From: a virus | Lineage: Duplodnaviria; Heunggongvirae; Uroviricota; Caudoviricetes | DNA: 16,422 bases | Strand: one strand, 5' to 3' | IMG/VR virus record: IMGVR_UViG_2541047794_000004 | Shown: positions 1-10,419 of the stretch, in pieces | Layout: the number at the start of each line of letters is the position of its first letter | How positions within the stretch are numbered: position 1 is the stretch's first letter | The notes under the pieces: generated by a model | The model's database searches: none | Told to the model about the DNA's origin: nothing | Seen by the model: the letters and a program-made list of their open reading frames with translations, nothing else | Program-made: the position numbers and the translations under genes

Positions 1-171
1 TCAATAAATCCCATCATTGCGATCAACCTCATCCTTAACCATTGATGCGAGCAGTTCTTCCAGTTTCTGCGCTGACAGCTTTACCTGGTGATCTTCAGCA
101 TCTTCCCGGGCTATTGTGGTTCGCGCAGTGGCTGATTTTGCTGACATCACCACAGGGGGCAGACGGACCAT
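1..171 (-). CDS. Hypothetical small protein (about 47-56 aa); start ambiguous
   Basis: Open frame ends with TGA (revcomp of tca at 1-3). Minus-strand ATG at 169-171 is preceded by GGAGG about 10 nt upstream; an alternative ATG lies at 145-147. The first ~45 codons of the 93-aa track ORF cross the tfa-like terminator hairpin and are probably non-coding. No family recognised. Confidence 0.3.
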   Translation of the reverse strand: MVRLPPVVMSAKSATARTTIAREDAEDHQVKLSAQKLEELLASMVKDEVDRNDGIY

Positions 172-235
172 TGAACCATGGCCTCCGGAACAAATAAGGG
201 CAAAAATAACAACCACTATCGAAAGCTCACAAACT

Positions 236-451
236 AACCGCAGCACGTTCCTGCATACGACGTGTCTGCGGCATAATCCCAATGATTACTCCCTGACAGG
301 GTTTGCAGGCCACTCAATATCAGGTGCAGTTGATGTATCAACACGATTCAACAATACCCGATATTTATTCCATGCCTCCAGCAACGATCTTTCTTCCTCC
401 GTTGCGATTTCCAGATCTACAGCATCCTGCAGTGGCGCAATATACTCACTG
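236..451. repeat. Direct repeat copy A: tfa 3' coding end plus 3' UTR hairpin, roughly 90% identical to 1286..1500
   Basis: By-eye alignment of 236-451 with 1286-1500 shows long identical runs (e.g. ggcataatcccaatgattactccctgacaggg, ctcaatatcaggtgcagttgatgtatcaacac). Includes an imperfect hairpin at 238-271. Confidence 0.85.
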
Positions 452-555
452 AATTCCTGGATGTAGAACTGTGTGGTGACGGTCTTCCAGCCATTCGGCT
501 CCTGCTGTATCGAAGCATACCAGGCTATTTCAATATCGCTATGCTGCGGCAGCAT
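286..555 (-). CDS. Short Tfa-like protein (89 aa): C-terminal ~50 aa match the tail fiber assembly protein C-terminus, with a novel 35-aa N-terminus; possible remnant or short paralog
   Basis: C-terminus [52 protein letters not shown] is near-identical to the C-terminus of the 194-aa Tfa at 1335..1919. ATG at 553-555 with AGGGG 4 nt upstream on the minus strand. Confidence 0.55.
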
Positions 556-582
556 TTAACCCCTTGTAATTCATCGCCATAA

Positions 583-611
583 TTGATTTAATTCACAAAT
601 AAAACTATAAC
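583..611 (+). promoter_or_regulatory. Candidate sigma70 promoter for the methyltransferase gene
   Basis: TTGATT at 583-588, 17-nt spacer, TATAAC at 606-611, in AT-rich DNA directly upstream of the ORF. Sequence-only prediction. Confidence 0.35.
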
Positions 612-623
612 ATGGTGAAATCA

Positions 624-1280
624 ATGAAAAAAAACACAGATGATGGGGCTAAAATTTACACACCACTTACCCTAAAGCTTTATGACTGGTGGGTTTTGGG
701 AGTATCAAATCGGCTTGCATGGGGATGTCCTACAAAGGAACACCTTCTTCCACACTTTCTGGAACATGTAGGTAACAACCATCTGGATATTGGTGTTGGA
801 ACTGGGTTTTACCTTACTCACGTACCTGAGAGTAGTCTGATATCTTTAATGGATTTGAACGAAGCTAGCCTGAACGCGGCATCTACAAGGGCTGGGGAAT
901 CAAAAATTAAACATAAAATTAGCCATGATGTTTTTGAACCTTATCCCGCGGCGTTACATGGTCAATTTGATTCCATTTCCATGTTTTACCTTCTTCACTG
1001 CCTGCCTGGAAATATATCTACAAAAAGCTGTGTAATACGCAATGCGGCGCAGGCCTTAACTGACGATGGAACTCTATACGGAGCCACAATTCTTGGCGAT
1101 GGAGTTGTGCACAATAGCTTCGGTCAAAAACTGATGCGCATTTACAATCAGAAAGGCATCTTTTCAAACACAAAAGATTCCGAAGAAGGCTTAACACATA
1201 TACTCTCAGAGCATTTCGAGAATGTTAAAACCAAGGTTCAAGGTACTGTAGTAATGTTTTCCGCTTCAGGGAAAAAATAG
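624..1280 (+). CDS. Class I SAM-dependent methyltransferase (orphan, about 218 aa; alternative start ATG 612)
   Basis: Glycine-rich motif I LDIGVGTG, acidic motif II-like LMDLNEA, and DSISMFYLLHCLP / LTDDGTLYGATI segments typical of a Rossmann-fold MTase. GGTGA 5 nt upstream of ATG 624. Low GC relative to the tail genes. No DPPY/NPPY or PCQ DNA-MTase motifs seen. TAG stop at 1278-1280. Confidence 0.7.
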   Translation: MKKNTDDGAKIYTPLTLKLYDWWVLGVSNRLAWGCPTKEHLLPHFLEHVGNNHLDIGVGTGFYLTHVPESSLISLMDLNEASLNAASTRAGESKIKHKISHDVFEPYPAALHGQFDSISMFYLLHCLPGNISTKSCVIRNAAQALTDDGTLYGATILGDGVVHNSFGQKLMRIYNQKGIFSNTKDSEEGLTHILSEHFENVKTKVQGTVVMFSASGKK

Positions 1281-1285
1281 CATCC

Positions 1286-1500
1286 AACCGCAGCACGTTC
1301 TTGCTTAAGACGTGCTGCGGCATAATCCCAATGATTACTCCCTGACAGGGTTCGTAGGCCACTCAATATCAGGTGCAGTTGATGTATCAACACGGTTCAG
1401 CAACACCCGATACTTTTTCCAGGCTTCCAGCAATGAGGTTTCTTCCTCCGTTGCAATTTCCAGATCTGCAGCATCCTGAAGCGGCGCAATATGCTCACTG
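1286..1500. repeat. Direct repeat copy B: 3' end of tfa plus its 3' UTR hairpin
   Basis: See copy A; same orientation, roughly 90% identity over about 215 bp. Confidence 0.85.
1288..1320 (-). terminator. Hairpin downstream of tfa (perfect 11-bp stem ccgcagcacgt / acgtgctgcgg); possible bidirectional terminator between convergent tfa and the methyltransferase
   Basis: Perfect inverted repeat at 1288-1298 and 1310-1320. On the minus strand a T-run follows about 10 nt downstream (revcomp of gaaaaaatag), further than in a canonical intrinsic terminator, so function is uncertain. Confidence 0.45.
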
Positions 1501-1919
1501 GCTACCTGCATCAGGTTGTTTTTTGTTTCTTCCGCCTCCCGGATCCGGAACAGTTTTTCTGCTTCCGTATCCTTCACCCAGGCTGTGCCGTTCCACTTCT
1601 GAAACTCCCCTTCCGGCGATAACCAGGTAACATTTTCCGGTAACGGACCGAGTTCAGAAATAAATAACTCGTCCCCTGACGCTACGTCATAAACCGTTTT
1701 CCCCCGATGGTCTTCAACGAGATGCCACGATGCCTCATCACTGTTGAAAACAGCCACAAAGCCAGCAGGAATATCTGGTGGTGCAATATCGGTACTGTTT
1801 GCTGGCAGACCTGTATGAGGCGGAATATATGCGTCACCTTCACCAATAAATTCATTAGTTCCGGCCAGCAGATTATAAATTTTTATGGTCCGTGCTTGTT
1901 CACTCATTCTGAATGCCAT
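1335..1919 (-). CDS. tfa: Tail fiber assembly protein Tfa (194 aa)
   Basis: Translation [39 protein letters not shown]... matches my recollection of lambda Tfa (orf-194) along its length and has the same 194-aa size. ATG overlaps the stf stop (TAATG). Confidence 0.93.
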
Positions 1920-4900
1920 TATGCAAGCCTCACAATATAGTTAAATGCGATGTTTTTGACGGTGTTTTCCGCGTTACCCGCAGCGTTAACGGTGATGGTG
2001 TGTCCATGTGAACCAATCGCAACGGAGTGCGTATGCGCACCAATACCTACAGTATGTGCATGTGCGCCAGAACTTGCTGCAGTACCAGACAGCGAGTGGG
2101 TATGAGCACCTGCTGACTGTGTCTGAATACGTTGATAATACGATCTATAGGAAGAAGTCTCCGGGCTTACTTGATACTGTGAATTCTGGACATAAGTGAA
2201 CCCACCGCCATCATAAAATGCTAACGCAGAACCGCCGCCTCCTGGCCAACGAATACCATTACCATGAGTATGAACACCGGCAGACCCCGTAGAGCCACTC
2301 AGACTGTGCGTATGCGCCCCGGTGTTATTCGTGGATTTAGTGCCGTAATCAAACGACGATGTGGTTTTCGTCCCCAAATCCGTACTGGATGCGCTGGCGC
2401 TGTGGGTGTGCGATTTTATGCCGTCCTGTTCCTGAGACAATACGGCCCGGCCACTGGCGGGTTTGCCCTTAATCGTCCAGCCACGCATATCAGGGATCAC
2501 GCCTGACGGATAAGCCGCTGCAAGTTTCGGGTAGGCAGATTTGTTAAAAGTCTGCCCCTGCATCAGGGCATAACCAGACGGAACGGTATCTGATGGCCAC
2601 GGGATTGGTGCGCCAACTGGGTAGCTTTCTGGTGGAAGATTTTTCGAGGTATAAACTTCTGCCCAGTCTTCCTCAAAACCATAACCGTCTCTTGAAGAAC
2701 GGTAGAACAGACCACGATTTCTGTAATGCGCCTTCATCTGCAGGGTCCGGCAACTTCCGACTCCGGTATAGAAGTTAACCAGAATATAGCTGTCGCCAGA
2801 GCGGGCGACATTGTAAGCGCCTGATTCGGCATTCCAGGGAACGGCTCCATTCGAATCCGCATAAGCCCCCGTCGAACGTCGGGCAAATGCACCAATATTT
2901 TCCGGCGTGAGGTTAATATCCGCCGAGCCATCAAACTTAACACCGTTAATTTTTGGGGCTGCCGCAAGTTTCGTCGCGGTATCGGCGTTCCCCTTCAGTG
3001 CCCCGGTGATCCCATCAGTAACAGACAACGGACCTGAAATAGTCCCTCCAGTCGTTGGCAGCGCTCCAATATCTGATGGTGTAGGTTTCTGATGTGAGCT
3101 ATACATCGTATAAACAACACCACCGGTAACGCTGGAAGGCTTACTCGCTGAATATGTTGGCGAGGTATAAATAGAAACTGACGCATTTGCAGTACAATCC
3201 CAATGGATATTTACACTCGTCGCATAATTGCCAATCTCAACGTAAATATCATATGTATCGCCGGATGTGTTGATCCAGGCGAAATTCGTTAATCCGACGG
3301 CTGTACGCTTCCACAAAGCCCCGGTAATTCCTTTGGGGTTTCCATTGCCTGCTCGTAGAACCAGTTCTGAAATGCCTGCCTGATGTGGGGAACCGACGTT
3401 GTAACCAGCGCCACCAATCAATGCGATGTAAACGATGGAACTCGCTTGTGGCATGGTAACCGTTGCCAGTTTGAACCACCCAGCCCCGCCAGAGAAAGAG
3501 ATCGTTACTGAATTTAAAGTGCCAATATCTTTCGGTGTTAATGTTATATCCGCAGTCAGTGCTTTCCCGTTAACTTTTCGGTTAGATGGTACCCTGCCAT
3601 TCGCATTGTCATTCGCTGCTTTAACTGCCTTCGGTGTCGCGGCAAGCGTTTCAGATGTGATGTTGGTCGCACTGCTGAGCTGTACTATCCCCTTTTTCGT
3701 CGTACTTGCATCCTCAAGCGCCACGGCGGATGCAATATCCTCTGCCCGTTTTGCCGCTGTCTCGGCGCGCGTTGCCGCGGATTCCGCCGTACTTTTGCTC
3801 TGTGCTGCCGCCGTCGCACTGCCAGCTGCCTCTGTCGCCTTCGCGGATGCTGTCGTGGCGCTGCCCTTCGCTGCTGACGCCTGTCTGGTCGCCTCATCTT
3901 TTGAAGCAGACGCCGATGATGCCGATGACGCCGCCGAACTGGCGGACGATGCGGCAGCCGTTTTTGAGGATTCTGCGCTGGTCTCCGACGCTTTCGCGTT
4001 CGTCTCCGATGTCTTCGCTGCGGAAGCAGACCTCGCTGCTGCACTGGCCTGTTCAGTGGCTTCGCCAGCCTTCGTTGTGGCTGTTGAAGCGGACGATGCG
4101 GCGCTTTCTGCCGATTTTCCGGCGGCGCTAGCACTGGCTGAGGCCTGCCCGGCACTTGTTGACGCTGCACTGGCAGACGACGCAGCCGCTGTTTTTGAGC
4201 CTGCTGCTGCGGAGGCACTCTGTGCTGCTGCCGTTTCAGAGGACTTAGCGTTTGTCTCAGACGTCTTTGCCGCCTTCGCGGAATTTCCTGCCGCCGTTGC
4301 CGAGGAAGCGGCATTACTGGCGCTCGAGGCTGCGCTCGTTTCTGATAATTTTGCCGCCTCTTTTGAAGCCGACGCATCTCTGGCTGAGGTGGCTGCTTCT
4401 GACGCTTTCGTGGTCGCGGTGGATGCAGAAGTGGCAGCTGATTGTTGTGACGCTGCCGCATTCGTTTCTGACGTTTTCGCCGCACCGGCACTGGTGGCCG
4501 CCGCGCTTTTTGAGGACTCTGCAGCGGCAGCACTTTTTGATGCTTCAGTGGCCTTTGCTGATGCCGTTCCTGCGCTGGAAGACGCAGACTGAGCCGACGA
4601 AGCGGCCTGTCCGGCTGACGTGCTGGCTGCTCGTGCTGAGCCTGCAGCATCAGTCGCACGGGTTGCCGCCTCACGGGCTGATGTGCTGGCATCGCTGGCT
4701 GATTTCTTCGCGGCTGCCGTGTTCTGTGCCACCGCGGACGCGTTACGCGCCACCTCTTCCACCATCAGTTCAAAGCGGCGCAGTGCCTCAGGACGGGCAT
4801 CATCCTCCGTCATGGCACCGAGAAAATCATTCAGCGTACCGGGTCGGGAATCTTCATACACGGTGATGGTCCCGGCATGTGACGGCGGGAATCCTTCCAC

Positions 4901-5089
4901 CAACAGAATAACGCTGTACTGACCGTACTCAACGTCCATGCTGTAACGCCCGGCTTCATCCGGATTTTCTGAGGCCAGCGTGTTCACCACCACCGTGGTG
5001 CTGTTACGTTTTGCTTTCAGCTGGATTGTGCAGTTCTGTACCGGTTTTCCTGTGCCGTCTTTCAGTACACCTGAAATCTTTACTGCCAT
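1919..5089 (-). CDS. stf: Side tail fiber protein Stf, full length (about 1056 aa from ATG 5087-5089; track ORF starts at upstream GTG 5095)
   Basis: N-terminus [26 protein letters not shown]... and C-terminus ...[49 protein letters not shown] match lambda Stf as I recall it. Long Ala/Ser/Thr-rich repeat tract. [10 protein letters not shown] and [11 protein letters not shown] tail-fiber repeat motifs in the central part. Confidence 0.9.
3731..4744. repeat. Low-complexity Ala/Ser/Thr-rich imperfect tandem repeat tract inside stf
   Basis: Stf residues about 118-455 consist of recurring AKTSETNA(K/A)..., SASTATTKA(S/G)EA..., SAASSAS units. The same composition bias produces long spurious ORFs in the other frames (3435..4592 +, 3685..4692 -). 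Confidence 0.8.
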
Positions 5090-5100
5090 ATTCACCCCAC

Positions 5101-5153: not shown

Positions 5154-5753
5154 TCAGAATTTATAACCGACACCAACGATGAAACTGTTGGTACGCCAGT
5201 CACCGCTGCCGGAGCCTTCATAAGCGACATCAACGGCCACGGATTCTGTCGGGTTAAACTGCACGCCAGCCCCCCACGCCAGAGACGTGTTGCTGTGGCG
5301 ACCGTCATCACTTCCGGTCAGCACATCGTGCGTTTTCCCCGTATTGTCGGTCACCTGCAGATAATCCCCGGAGAAAGTCGACACACGGCTGTAAGCCACA
5401 CCCGCCATCGCATACGCGCTGAACCATTCATTCACGCGCACAGACGGCCCCGCCATCACGCTGAACCAGCGGTTACGCACGGAATCTTCATGCCAGCGGG
5501 TATCGCTGTAATGCGTTTTTTGCTCATCTTCAGCGTTGGCATAACTGAATGACGTAATCAGCCCCAGCGTGTCCGTAAACTCATAACGGTATTTCACGTT
5601 AATCCCGTTCAGATTATCGCTGCCGGGAGCGTTCGTACGGGCATGAAGATACCCTGCGCTCAGTGTGGCCTGCTGCTCAGACGCCCATGCAGGCGCACCG
5701 GATACGGCCAGACAGATGGCTGCGGACAAAATGGCTGCACAAACTTTACGCAT
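5154..5753 (-). CDS. lom: Lom/Ail-family outer membrane beta-barrel protein (199 aa)
   Basis: N-terminal signal peptide [24 protein letters not shown]. Motifs [17 protein letters not shown] and the C-terminus [23 protein letters not shown] match lambda Lom as I recall it. Sits between J and stf as in lambda. GAGAGG RBS. Confidence 0.9.
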
Positions 5754-5820: not shown

Positions 5821-8800
5821 TCAGCTAATCGTGATGCCTGCAGTGGCTTTCTTCATCACCACAACCAGCAAATCGCTGATACTTGCTGTGGGATACCAGT
5901 TATTTACCAGCCATGCTGACACCGAAAACTCCAGTGTCATGTGACCGTGACCGGCAGGCATATCAATAACGCCACTGTAAATCAGCGTATTATCCAGCGC
6001 GGTACGGTTATAAATTTCAGCACCGTTTTTCCGCACTATCAGACGGCATGAGGAGTAAATATCAGTATGCTCTTTCTCATGTTTAGCGCCGCTGAATGCC
6101 ACCGCCGGAATAACAATCTGCCGGTCAAACGGCTGATCGTCATAAACCCTGACGGTAATGGTTCCTGATGGCCACCGCTCCGGTGCACGGGAGTCCCGGG
6201 GGAAAGCTTTGCCCACTGTTTTAACGAGATCGCCTTCAATCTGGTTCGCGGACAATTTTCCCAGAACCCGACAGTTCTCGTTAATCGTGACGTTGTTGAG
6301 CGTCCCGGAGTTCGCATTCACGTTACCGCTGATATCGGCATTTTTCGCCGTCAGCCGCCCGTCCGGTGTCAGGGAAAATGCCGGAGGATTACCGCCGCTG
6401 GTAATGGTGGGGGCCGTCAGGCGTTTCAGGAACACTTCATTCATGAATATCTGATCGCCCTGACCAACAAACATCGGCTTTGTGTTGCCATTCGCAGGAT
6501 TAATCATCGCAATCCTGTCTGCTGCCAGCAGCACCTGACTCTGCATGCCGTCAGGGGTGTTCTCAATACCGGCACCGATACCCGCAATATAAAGGCGTCC
6601 GTCCTGCATCTGCTGCAGCTTCACTGCCCACATGCTGTTCAGGTTATTATTTGTATCAACCTGAACCTTCTGTATCTGCTGGATCGCTGCACTCTGGTCT
6701 TCCAGTTTCTTATTGACGGTCTGTGTTATTTCATTGCTGACATCCGTTATGGACGTCCTGATTTCAGTCAGGTCAGGCGCAAGCTGACCGTTATCAATCT
6801 GCGTCCACAGCTCCTGAGCCAGATGGGTTTTCCCTATCTCGCCTTTGAAAAAATCCAGATAGCCTGATGCATCATCACTCGGCTGACCGACAGCCTCCAC
6901 GAATGCCGATTTGCCAACGGTGTTCACACTGCGAACGTAAAAATAATAATCATGGCCCGGTTTGATATTGATACTGGCGGCTATCCAGTACAGTGCCGTA
7001 CCAAGATAACGCGCGCTGGTTTCAACCTGCCTGATATCCGCAATCCGTTTTTCCGAGAACCAGAACTCAAACTGTACCGTCGGATCATAAACCGCAAGAT
7101 GCGGCGTGGCGGTTATCTGAAAATAGCCCGGCGTCAGCTCAATCCGCGACGGTGCTGCCGGTGCGGCAATCCGGAATGATACCGACGCCGGATCACCCTG
7201 CTGCCCCCAGGCATTTACCGCCCTGACTGTCAGCCTGTAGTTCCCCAGCGCCAGCTGCCTGAAGCGGTATGTGGTTTCCGTCGTCCGGGCCGTGCTGACC
7301 AGCCGCTCACTGCCGTCATCCGCTGTTACGGTCAGACGGAGCAGGAAGCTCACGCCCTTCACCACCTTCGGCGTGTCCCAGCGGGCCAGCACCTGATATT
7401 CCCCGCTGTCTGCGGTGACTTCGGCAGTCAGGTGCTGCACCGCTGGCGGCGTGACACCATTCACCGTGCCGCTCTGGTCGCCGTCAAAGTGCGCCCCGTT
7501 ATCCACGATGGCTTCTTTTTCCGGTACATGCTGCACGGCGGTGATGGCATACGTGCCGTCGTCGTTCTCACGGATACTCACGCAGCGGAACAGGCGCTGG
7601 CGCAGCGTCGGCAGCTTCAGCCCCCACACGCTGTATTCAGCAACGCCGTCAGGAACACGGCTCACTTTCACCTTCACGCCGTCGGTGACGGACTGGACCT
7701 CCACGCTGACCGGATTCCCCTGTCCGTCAACCAGGCTTATCAGCGTGGTGCCGGAGGATGGCAGCGTGATTTCACGGTCGAGCGTCAGTGTCCGCGTCTG
7801 GCTGTTCACCGCCAGCACGCGCCCGCCGATGCTGATACCCGCATAGTCATCATCACAGATTTCAATGACATCGCCCGGTACATGGCGAAGCCCTTCTGCA
7901 CCCACGCTGAAGTCCACGGTCTGCGTTTCCAGCAGCTCCGTTTTAATCAGCCACAGCCCGGCGCGGTGTGCCTGCCCCCGGCTGGTACAGCCAAAGGCAT
8001 CCATCTTCGTGACGTTACGACCGTAACGGAGAATGGCCTGCGTATCTTCAACAAGCTCTGTCGCCGTCTCCCAGCCGTTATTCGGGTCAATCCAGTTCAC
8101 CTCAACGGCATTATGGCGGTCCTTCAGGGCGCTGAAGCTGTAGCGGAACGGCGCGCCATCATCCGGCATCACCACATTACTGCGGTTATAGGTCCACACC
8201 TTATCCGACGGTCGGTCCTGCACGAACGTCAGCGTCTGCCCGTTCCATACCGGCATACAGCGCATCGCCGAGCAGAAATCACTGAGAACATCCCACGCCT
8301 TACGCTGTGTGGTCAGGTAGGCATTACAGGTGATGCGCGGCTCCGTGCCACCAAAGCCATCCGGCACTGACTGATCGCAATACTGGCCGATGACATACAG
8401 CGCCCATTTGTCCACATCCGCCGCACCAAGACGTTTCCCCATGCCGTAGCGCGGGTGGGTCAGCATATCCCACAGACACCAGGCCATGTTGTTGCTGTAT
8501 GCCGGTTTAAACGTCCCGTCCCAGATACCGTTGTATTGCCGCGTCTGCGGGTTATAGTTCGACGGCACCTGCAGAATGCGCCCGCGAAGATGATAATTAC
8601 GGCTCACCTGCTGGCTGCCGAACTGCTCCGAATCCACCTGCACGCCGACCAGTGCCGTGTTCGGGTAGCCCTGTTTCACATCGATGATTTCGGTGTATGA
8701 CGACCAGAGCGTTTTGTTCTGCAGCTGGTCTGTGGTGCTGTCCGGCGTCATCCTGCGCATCCGTATATTGAACGGGCGCGGCGGCAGGTTACCCACCACC

Positions 8801-9300
8801 ACCGAGGCCAGATACTGCGAGGTGGTTTTGCCCTTAATGGTGATGTCTTTTTCCGTCACCCAGCCACCATTACGTTGTATCTGAACCAGCAGGCGAACTT
8901 CCGACGGATTCCTGTCCCCCTTTGAGGTGGTTTCCACCAGTGCCTGCACACCGAAGGTAAAACGCAGTCGGTCAATGTTTGCCGACGTGATGGTCCGGGT
9001 GATCGGCGTGTCGTATTTCACTTCCGTACCCAGTACCGTCTCGGAACCTGATGATTCAAATCCCTCCGGCGGTGTCTGTTCCTGCTCACCTGCCCGGAAC
9101 ACCACCGTGACACCAGAGATGTTAGTATTCCCCTCACTGTCCAGCACCGGTGTACTGTTCAGCAGCACGCTTTTTAATCCATCCACCGGACCTTCAACCG
9201 GCCCTTCGCTGATGGCATCGATCACACTCAGCAGCTGCGTGGACTTCAGGTTGTCCCTCGCTTCGCGCGGGGTATGCCCCTTACTGCTTCCTTTACCCAT
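5821..9300 (-). CDS. J: Tail tip / host specificity protein J (1159 aa), central fibre and receptor-binding protein
   Basis: N-terminus [34 protein letters not shown]... and most of the length match lambda gpJ as I recall it; the last ~150 aa look divergent. GGAG 8 nt upstream of the ATG. Confidence 0.95.
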
Positions 9301-9311
9301 TCCTCACACTC

Positions 9312-9342
9312 CATAAACAACAAAGCCGCCCAAAAGGCGGCT
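9312..9342 (-). terminator. Rho-independent terminator after the lipoprotein moron, immediately upstream of the J start
   Basis: Stem agccgcc (9324-9330) / ggcggct (9336-9342) with loop caaaa; followed on the minus strand by a U-rich run (uuguuguuuau). Confidence 0.65.
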
Positions 9343-9366
9343 CATGAGTTACGGCAGGATTAACTA

Positions 9367-9705
9367 TTATTTACATGCATTAACACTATCAGCAAAAATT
9401 TTTGGCGTTAATGCTGGTACACGTTCATAAAGAGTAAAACTACTGCCATTTCCTGCTTTTTTGATATCAAGCACAACATCATATCCCCCCATAGCCTGTG
9501 GAACTAAAAGGCTTACCCCATTCTCAATAGGAAGGGATGTTATAGGTGTTCCATTACCAGCCCATTGTCTGGATATGCAGCCTGACAATTCATCAATATT
9601 TTTTAATGAATTACCTTCCATTACAGGTTTTCCGGATTTTACGTAATCCAAAGACTTACATCCTGTTAAGGCAATAATCGTGCAGAATAAAATCGTTTTG
9701 TTCAT
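9367..9705 (-). CDS. Predicted lipoprotein (about 112 aa) of unknown function; moron inserted between I and J
   Basis: Signal peptide with lipobox MNKTILFCTIIALTGC (L-T-G-C). Low GC. Promoter-like AT-rich upstream region and its own terminator. Track ORF begins at an upstream TTG (9717); ATG at 9703-9705 preferred. Confidence 0.6.
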   Translation of the reverse strand: MNKTILFCTIIALTGCKSLDYVKSGKPVMEGNSLKNIDELSGCISRQWAGNGTPITSLPIENGVSLLVPQAMGGYDVVLDIKKAGNGSSFTLYERVPALTPKIFADSVNACK

Positions 9706-9717
9706 ATAGCTAACCAA

Positions 9718-9777
9718 TAGAATAATTATCAGTGTTCGATATAAATATTAAATCAGTTAGAACATGAGTAAATAATA
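9718..9777 (-). promoter_or_regulatory. AT-rich intergenic region upstream of the lipoprotein gene; possible promoter (TGATAAT element around 9724-9731)
   Basis: About 60 bp of very AT-rich sequence between the I stop and the lipoprotein start, containing extended -10-like TGATAAT on the minus strand. No clear -35; weak prediction. Confidence 0.25.
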
Positions 9778-10419
9778 TTACCGCCCAATTACCACAACCT
9801 GACCACCATCCCCTTCATCTGCCGTGCTGATCTCCTGAGATGCCACACGTGACCCCACGCGCATTTCACCGTACAGAACAGGCAGGACATTGCCCTGGGC
9901 AACCATGTTATCCAGTGAGGAGAAATAGGTGTTCTGTTTGCCGTTATCCGTTGTCTGTGTACGGGGAGTTCTGGCTTTCGGTGCCAGCATCTGCGCCACA
10001 CCACCAAGCGTCATCGCCGCACCCATTGAAAAGAGAATGTCACTGAAAGCGATACTGATCCCCGGCATCCAGATTGCCGTAGCAATCAACGCCGCACCCA
10101 GCACCGCCTGAAACACACCGCCACTTTTTGCTCCCGCAAGACGCGGCACGATGTGGATCACGGCACCATTTGCCAGCGGCTCATTAAGACGGGATGATAA
10201 TTCGGTTTCTCCTGCATCCCGCCCGGCAATCCGTACCTGATACCAGCCATCGCTCAGTTTCTGACGAAACGCCGGGAGCTGTGTGGCCAGTGCCCGGATG
10301 GCTTCAGCCCCCGTTTTCACACGAAGGTCGATGCGGCGGCCAAATCGTTGCAAATCCCCGTAAAGGCAGATGCGTGCCATTCCCGGTGACGCCAGAGGGA
10401 GTGTGTGCGTCGCTGCCAT
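9778..10419 (-). CDS. I: Tail assembly protein I (213 aa)
   Basis: MAATHTLPLASPGMARICLYGDLQRFGRRIDLRVKTGAEAIRALATQLPAFRQKLSDGWYQVRIAGRD... and C-terminus ...EISTADEGDGGQVVVIGR match lambda gpI as I recall it. Overlaps the 3' end of K by about 100 nt. Confidence 0.9.
   Translation of the reverse strand: MAATHTLPLASPGMARICLYGDLQRFGRRIDLRVKTGAEAIRALATQLPAFRQKLSDGWYQVRIAGRDAGETELSSRLNEPLANGAVIHIVPRLAGAKSGGVFQAVLGAALIATAIWMPGISIAFSDILFSMGAAMTLGGVAQMLAPKARTPRTQTTDNGKQNTYFSSLDNMVAQGNVLPVLYGEMRVGSRVASQEISTADEGDGGQVVVIGR

Follow-up and report, generated by a model that had tools for sequence, protein, structure and literature searches.

What is a lone methyltransferase gene doing beyond the last tail-fibre gene of a lambda-like prophage, on the strand opposite to all of the tail genes? 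The question is raised by positions 556-1334 of a 16,422-nucleotide stretch of Caudoviricetes DNA (IMG/VR record IMGVR_UViG_2541047794_000004; the whole stretch is called the window here), where the sole long open reading frame (ORF) of the interval runs on the plus strand from 612 to 1280 and converges on tfa. An original prediction, made from the sequence alone, had described this gene as an orphan methyltransferase standing by itself against the tail genes, and had called it a moron, a term by which Hendrix and colleagues reportedly mean an independently transcribed prophage cargo gene. Its strand and its isolation are as described, the immediate neighbours being tfa and a tfa remnant. Judged by nucleotide and protein identity, the gene is an intact allele of Escherichia coli K-12 ybcY (b0562), already annotated in RefSeq and PHROGs, and we favour, at a probability of roughly 0.6, the reading that ybcY is a prophage cargo gene for a cytoplasmic small-molecule methyltransferase that is transcribed independently of the tail operon.

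The alignment to K-12 ybcY covers window positions 540-1331 at 99% identity (783 of 792 aligned nucleotides), the window allele is listed in RefSeq as WP_000240999.1 (‘class I SAM-dependent methyltransferase’, SAM being S-adenosylmethionine), and PHROG 2132 matches positions 1-218 of 218 with an expect value (E) of 4.2e-157. Rather than an unusual orphan, the gene is thus a named locus, whose 779-bp segment we found at at least 95% identity in 3838 of 5426 complete E. coli genomes (about 70%), in 1 to 4 places per genome. The order tfaD/ybcY/tfaX of K-12 corresponds to the order tfa, methyltransferase and tfa remnant (tfa') of the window, and the upstream spacer and the hairpin that follows the gene are alike in both. 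However, K-12 ybcY is a pseudogene of the cryptic prophage DLP12, in which a 2-bp deletion destroys ATG-624 and shifts the frame from ATG-612, and which also carries three amino-acid changes (3 non-synonymous against 1 synonymous change), whereas the window copy is intact. The two also differ in chromosomal site: genomes with an exact match to the window have the prophage at the ompW/yciE-trp site, where it stops some hundred bases more to the left, in an ompW remnant by yciE and trp, while the K-12 copy lies at the DLP12 site.

The reading frame offers two starts, ATG-612, used by RefSeq and giving 222 residues, and an in-frame ATG at 624 that gives a 218-residue form. On sequence grounds ATG-624 is the more likely start (coding sequence 624-1280, plus strand), because a Shine-Dalgarno-like GGTGA, read from the sequence at 614-618 on the plus strand, sits 5 nt upstream of it, because the match to the PHROG 2132 profile sets in at residue 5 of the 222-residue form, because most homologues begin there, and because the lesion of the K-12 pseudogene removes exactly that ATG. 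The position of GGTGA agrees with both the homologue alignment and the PHROG profile.

By its profile matches the product is a member of the class I SAM-dependent methyltransferase superfamily, as had been predicted from a LDIGVGTG motif. In the 218-residue form motif I reads HLDIGVGTG at residues 53-61 (LDIGVGTG at 54-61), with Asp55, Gly57, Gly59 and Gly61 invariant in 25 homologues, and four Pfam models score above their gathering thresholds (Methyltransf_12, 37.5 bits against 30; Methyltransf_23, 29 against 27; Methyltransf_25, 27.7 against 27; Methyltransf_11, 24.6 against 21.2). An AlphaFold model built on the homologue alignment (predicted local distance difference test score 91.7, predicted template-modelling score 0.88) has a class I α/β core, to which are added two helices at the N-terminus and a helical insert that, in the model, would cap a pocket, and structure comparison agrees in finding the alternating α/β arrangement and seven-stranded sheet of the class I fold. 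The protein is a single domain of about 24 kDa with a neutral isoelectric point (6.9).

A position beside tfa would be in keeping with an enzyme that methylates a macromolecule (DNA, RNA or protein), be it for anti-restriction, for epigenetic marking or for modification of the tail fibre or its chaperone. We nevertheless consider this quite improbable. A regular-expression search of the protein found neither the DNA-methylase motif IV, (D/N/S)PP(Y/F/W), in its DPPY, NPPY or any other form, nor PCQ; there is no target-recognition domain and no RNA-binding module in the 218 residues, whose isoelectric point is neutral; the gene is transcribed against the tail operon; and its homologues stand alone on the chromosomes of bacteria without phage context, as well as in fungi. 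Likewise its neighbours, tfa and the tfa remnant, include no restriction or defence partner, and the PADLOC defence models gave only a faint match (E 0.0096, 12.8 bits), on which we reject membership of a defence system. The original prediction, which had also found no DNA-methylase motif and no restriction partner and had left small-molecule, protein and RNA substrates side by side, is therefore borne out in these respects, and it is the first of its substrate classes that the structural neighbours favour.

The closest folds recovered by Foldseek are all small-molecule methyltransferases, at template-modelling (TM) scores of 0.55-0.68 and identities of 12-21%, and the search found no close solved structure. 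Similar to juvenile hormone acid methyltransferase (JHAMT; PDB ID 7ebs and 7ec0), UbiG, PmtA (PDB ID 8ys9), DhpI and Coq5, YbcY combines a Rossmann-type seven-strand fold with an N-terminal helical lid, a GxGxG motif I and an acidic residue after strand 2, and with JHAMT it also has in common an ‘FYxLH’ segment after strand 4. All of these enzymes lack, however, the signature of the YbcY family, whose invariant blocks are an N-terminal YDWWVL..SN..AW.C.T, HCLPG (which follows strand 4), GATILG and YN.KGIFSN, and which includes two invariant cysteines. Given this signature of its own, and identities and TM scores in the above ranges without a specific match, no substrate can be transferred from the solved enzymes. 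A relationship to the pyrone/enol O-methyltransferases AurI, EncK and JerF is conceivable. Among the solved enzymes the phospholipid N-methyltransferases of the PmtA type would suggest that phosphatidylethanolamine is methylated in the inner membrane and the envelope of the lysogen thereby altered. The R. thermophilum phosphatidylethanolamine N-methyltransferase takes Foldseek ranks 2 and 5 with the best two-way TM scores (0.62-0.66) and is of the same size (about 208 residues), there is a faint NCBIfam PmtA match (E 0.0098), and Trp, Tyr and Leu abound in the N-terminal helix. Against this, the match to NCBIfam NF045882 reaches 15.7 bits where the equivalog cut-off is 390, so that the protein falls outside that family, sequence identity amounts to 15-17%, and equally good scores are reached by dozens of methyltransferases that are unrelated. 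Moreover, we know of no report of methylated phosphatidylethanolamine or phosphatidylcholine in wild E. coli, and we regard a PmtA-type activity as most improbable.

What we can say about the family as a whole argues for a function that is held on to. The cluster at at least 90% identity to the E. coli protein has 6589 members, and an exhaustive profile search returned 1722 representatives at 50% clustering (409 with E ≤ 1e-30) that reach from Gammaproteobacteria to Acidobacteria, Actinobacteria and many fungi, including an intronless Aspergillus wentii gene with 44% identity over 212 residues. Stand-alone chromosomal relatives at 50-68% identity are present in Enterobacter, Klebsiella, Yersinia (including Y. 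pestis), Erwinia, Pantoea, Proteus and Providencia, and further ones in Pasteurellaceae, Pseudomonas, Xanthomonadales and Oxalobacteraceae. Comparison with the orthologues of Citrobacter, Enterobacter and Klebsiella gives a ratio of non-synonymous to synonymous substitution rates of about 0.10 (it is not estimable further out because synonymous sites are saturated), and 65 columns are invariant among 25 sequences of 55-90% identity; the family is under strong purifying selection. Neither Pfam nor NCBIfam holds a family-specific model.

Genomic context is less telling about the substrate. When ORFs were called and clustered at 65 genome loci, no neighbour was conserved across genera, and synteny was seen at the level of lineages only. 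In Pseudomonas (P. syringae, P. viridiflava and related species; six loci) a same-strand run of a DUF6388 gene, which ends 8 nt upstream, the methyltransferase and an enoyl-CoA hydratase/isomerase family gene is followed by a CorA-like gene in 5/6 of the loci; this run is the sole operon-like association and is limited to the Pseudomonas lineage. In Klebsiella pneumoniae ATCC 13883 and Proteus (six loci) the homologue is very AT-rich (GC 0.35 and 0.30) and adjoins a divergent gene pair that, judged from translations alone, resembles PAPS-reductase-like and ParB-like genes of the IbrA/IbrB type. No biosynthetic cluster was found at the fungal or actinobacterial loci, and domain fusions in distant relatives were uninformative, comprising N-terminal extensions without Pfam domains and one RCC1 fusion in a lichen fungus. 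Genes for α/β-hydrolases, esterases and glyoxalases lie nearby in several unrelated contexts, and we discarded them as evidence because such families are too common to carry weight.

Is ybcY then cargo, and if so, of what standing? Among 50,697 phage records only 15 contain any homologue, all of them E. coli lambdoid phages at at least 98.6% protein identity; 14 plaque-forming or induced lambdoid phage records cover the protein in full at 98.6-100%. In the same search phage lambda had no homologue, in line with the original prediction. In carrier genomes the left junction with the tfa remnant is kept in 3437 cases and the right junction with the tfa 3' end in 3064. The alternative that the gene is a conserved core component at this position thus has something to it as regards the slot, which is the same and bears the same tfa debris in most carriers, but not as regards the gene, which by its rarity among phage records is accessory. 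Junction linkage and rarity together therefore describe an accessory cargo gene fixed to a tfa recombination joint, neither core nor rare. Two marks of a moron are present, in that the slot is empty in related phages (lambda included) and the base composition is distinct (GC 0.41; GC at third codon positions, GC3, 0.36). More exactly, the coding sequence has a GC content of 0.412 (GC3 0.356) and the interval 556-1334 one of 0.408, compared with 0.48 for tfa, 0.545 for the side tail fibre gene stf, 0.563 for J (5821-9300) and 0.542 for the whole window, so the AT-richness relative to the tail genes that had been noticed in the original prediction holds up.

The other anticipated hallmark, duplicated tfa 3' ends on both sides of the gene, takes the form of a 227-bp direct repeat of about 89% identity (236-462 and 1286-1511) that comprises a hairpin and the last ~59 codons of tfa. 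The left copy contains a hairpin copy at 238-272 and the tfa 3' end of the remnant, and the right copy contains the hairpin and the 3' end of the intact tfa. The remnant tfa' is an ORF of 89 residues on the minus strand (286-555), the counterpart of K-12 tfaX and an incomplete pseudogene in RefSeq; its first ~30 residues are unrelated to Tfa and its last ~59 are a diverged Tfa C-terminus, such that Caudo_TAP matches only residues 31-86 while phrog_2341 matches the full length (E 4e-61). Between the two repeat copies, 30% of the synonymous and 8.7% of the non-synonymous sites have diverged (pS 0.30, pN 0.087). A fresh local (target) duplication of tfa ends is ruled out by the synonymous divergence; by sequence, the copies are two old tfa alleles joined by recombination.

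These same junctions, which travel with the gene in 80-90% of carriers, are what one would expect if the gene were of no use in E. coli, being common only through its physical linkage to a tfa recombination module exchanged among lambdoid prophages, kept off by H-NS and slowly decaying. That nearly all E. coli copies are at least 95% identical fits recent spread more than long maintenance, and the K-12 allele, with its 2-bp deletion and its excess of non-synonymous changes, is indeed dead. However, 3797 of the 3838 carriers keep at least 80% of the 779-bp segment, the 90% cluster of the full-length protein has thousands of members, and purifying selection is strong family-wide. In addition, mobile relatives at 64-90% identity in Citrobacter, Salmonella and E. 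albertii lie in prophage or island cargo regions, which points to more than one capture of the gene as mobile cargo, and the independent pick-up of diverged alleles (64-67% identity) in other such regions suggests repeated selection for carriage. On balance we think it unlikely that ybcY is carried without use. As to the settings of the mobile relatives, the Citrobacter copy lies by purB in a region with DinI and SRAP genes, the Salmonella copy by mutS in the order int, DUF3950, methyltransferase, ricin-B lectin and tail fibre, and the E. albertii copy beside OspG-type kinase and cdtA genes.

Expression is the second part of the favoured reading, namely that the cargo gene is transcribed apart from the tail operon. 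The spacer upstream of the gene (556-611, plus strand) holds two overlapping σ70-like candidates that both score 9/12, TTAACC-16-CATAAT (556-583), obtained from a scan, and TTGATT-17-TATAAC (583-611, with TTGATT at 583-588 and TATAAC at 606-611), read from the sequence. The -10 element TATAAC abuts ATG-612 and lacks the conserved final T, and its position would put the transcription start at about 618 and yield an almost leaderless message; TTAACC-16-CATAAT fits ATG-624 better because a normal leader with GGTGA would remain. In a genomic SELEX (systematic evolution of ligands by exponential enrichment) study with RpoD holoenzyme the K-12 ybcY/tfaX spacer, which differs from window positions 556-611 at one base, is a binding site at which H-NS is flagged as well, and TTGATT-17-TATAAC is listed as the predicted ybcY promoter (PMC3946193). 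The hexamers of the proposed promoter are where they were said to be and the K-12 spacer is bound by RNA polymerase in vitro, but the hexamers themselves are candidates; the H-NS mark, for its part, would equally suit a gene that is kept off and of no use. From its orientation against the late tail operon, and from a spacer of its own that in K-12 SELEX binds RNA polymerase, we infer that any expression of the gene would come from the prophage state, independently of lytic growth.

At the other end a perfect 11-bp inverted repeat (CCGCAGCACGT...ACGTGCTGCGG; 1288-1320) lies between the converging stops of the methyltransferase (1280) and tfa (1335). It folds strongly on both strands (-23.9 kcal/mol on the plus and -28.5 on the minus strand; z -5.9 and -4.7 against shuffled sequence), which sustains the earlier suggestion of a convergent hairpin shared with tfa, and it is probably a shared transcript-end hairpin. 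A T-run follows the stem on the minus (tfa) strand only, displaced by about 8 nt.

Several observations weigh against the reading that we favour. On the plus strand no U-tract stands 3' of the hairpin and the terminator scan gave no flag there, so that it is not a canonical terminator for the methyltransferase, and the promoter-like matches are not above chance (3 found in the scan where 3.7 were expected). Under laboratory conditions E. coli can do without the gene, K-12 having only a pseudogene, and a K-12 ybcY mutant left Hha toxicity unchanged (PMC2408971). In the papers examined ybcY is mentioned incidentally and without a phenotype, as would also be expected of a gene without use, and the accession WP_000240999.1 was not found in papers. 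No biochemical or expression record was found for any family member, and the names given to relatives in homologue searches and cluster look-ups were generic only.

Taken together, ybcY is in our reading cargo that one lineage of lambda-like prophages of E. coli has immediately beyond its gene for tail-fibre assembly, the surrounding tfa remnants having presumably been left by recombination of tail-fibre modules. Its product would be a soluble, single-domain class I enzyme that most likely uses SAM as methyl donor and a nucleophile of low molecular weight as acceptor. The enzymes it resembles suggest that the methylated group might be a carboxyl, hydroxyl, amine or thiol, carried by a metabolite or xenobiotic; DNA would not be methylated. 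Expression would probably be damped by H-NS on the AT-rich DNA.

Similar debris of tail-fibre modules extends through this end of the prophage. On the far side of tfa', that is downstream of it, window positions 1-282 (minus strand) hold a fragment of another tail-fibre-type gene, which matches PHROG 1141 and PHROG 7703 and which RefSeq gives as a DUF4376 pseudogene with an internal stop; this prophage end is a stack of such debris. On the other side, tfa (1335-1919, minus strand) is complete and the last gene of the tail operon, encoding a tail fibre assembly protein of 194 residues (Caudo_TAP, E 1.9e-44; phrog_105, E 9e-101; annotated as such in RefSeq). Beyond it follow, all on the minus strand, stf (1919-5095, 1058 residues), lom (5154-5753), J (5821-9300) and the tail gene series I-K-L-M-H-T-G-V. 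A RefSeq ‘hypothetical protein’ of 45 residues (WP_001309429.1; 1225-1362, minus strand) extends over the hairpin, the last part of the methyltransferase gene and the stop codon of tfa and is probably a spurious call. Between I (9778-10419) and J there is a second moron-like insert in a low-GC patch (about 9300-9780, GC 0.36-0.40), whose ORF (9367-9717, minus strand) encodes 112 residues (MNKTILF...) with a lipoprotein signal and an LTGC lipobox; it matches PHROG 914, of unknown function, at E 7e-33 and no Pfam model, and at the equivalent place no gene is annotated in the prophage of strain 120899, which is similar in other respects.

Two Rfam models also fall on the repeated tfa segment. RF02111 (‘IS009’, a candidate E. 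coli small RNA) matches the tfa 3' part at 1378-1576 on the minus strand with 225 bits, against a gathering score of 117, and the tfa' remnant at 329-532 on the minus strand with 112.5 bits, just under that score; given that it coincides with the repeated tfa coding segment, the model may stand for a conserved remnant of protein-coding sequence rather than for an RNA gene. CssrB, a chromosome-encoded Shigella small RNA, gives a sub-threshold match over the hairpin and the tfa stop region (1289-1351, minus strand; 32.6 bits against 76, E 2.5e-4), and might come from the 3' end of a tfa transcript. With these two as the sole yield of Rfam, one equal to the tfa 3' coding repeat and the other sub-threshold on the hairpin, we rejected a structured RNA in the interval.

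As a sequence feature the locus changes little, for the gene is named, annotated and in an expected prophage cargo slot. Its remaining interest lies in the function of a gene that about 70% of complete E. coli genomes carry, that is strongly conserved between enterobacteria and fungi and that recurs in prophage and island cargo slots by virulence genes; the dead copy in K-12 may explain why ybcY has been neglected. We can offer, as a doubtful but possible explanation, that YbcY belongs to a large uncharacterised family acting on one widespread small molecule (e.g. a toxic metabolite, an electrophile or a metalloid), and that lambdoid prophages spread it for a detoxifying or niche advantage of their lysogens. 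If true, this would be a metabolic lysogenic-conversion trait that has not been described so far. A defined activity would give lysogenic conversion a metabolic example, and would annotate thousands of entries that now read ‘class I SAM-dependent methyltransferase’.

How does the locus compare with known lambdoid systems? In phages 2G7b, ev243 and the PhiR series, which carry the same gene (PHROG 2132, WP_000240999.1), it occupies the same place past the tail-fibre genes as in the window, and nothing material differs. In 2G7b it lies between a different fibre module, which replaces the intact tfa, and an end composed of α/β hydrolase, ompT and int genes, with tfa 3' debris on both sides (about 120 bp and about 225 bp), the right side keeping only about 120 bp. 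Cargo of the lambda type is found at the tail-fibre or b-region end, as with lom and bor in lambda and, in O157 prophages, with the effector loci that lie downstream of the tail-fibre genes. Similar to these, ybcY is an additional gene at a place where relatives have none, with a distinct base composition, an orientation of its own, and flanking promoter-like and hairpin elements. However, whereas lom, bor and the O157 effectors yield envelope or secreted products, the product of ybcY is a predicted cytoplasmic enzyme.

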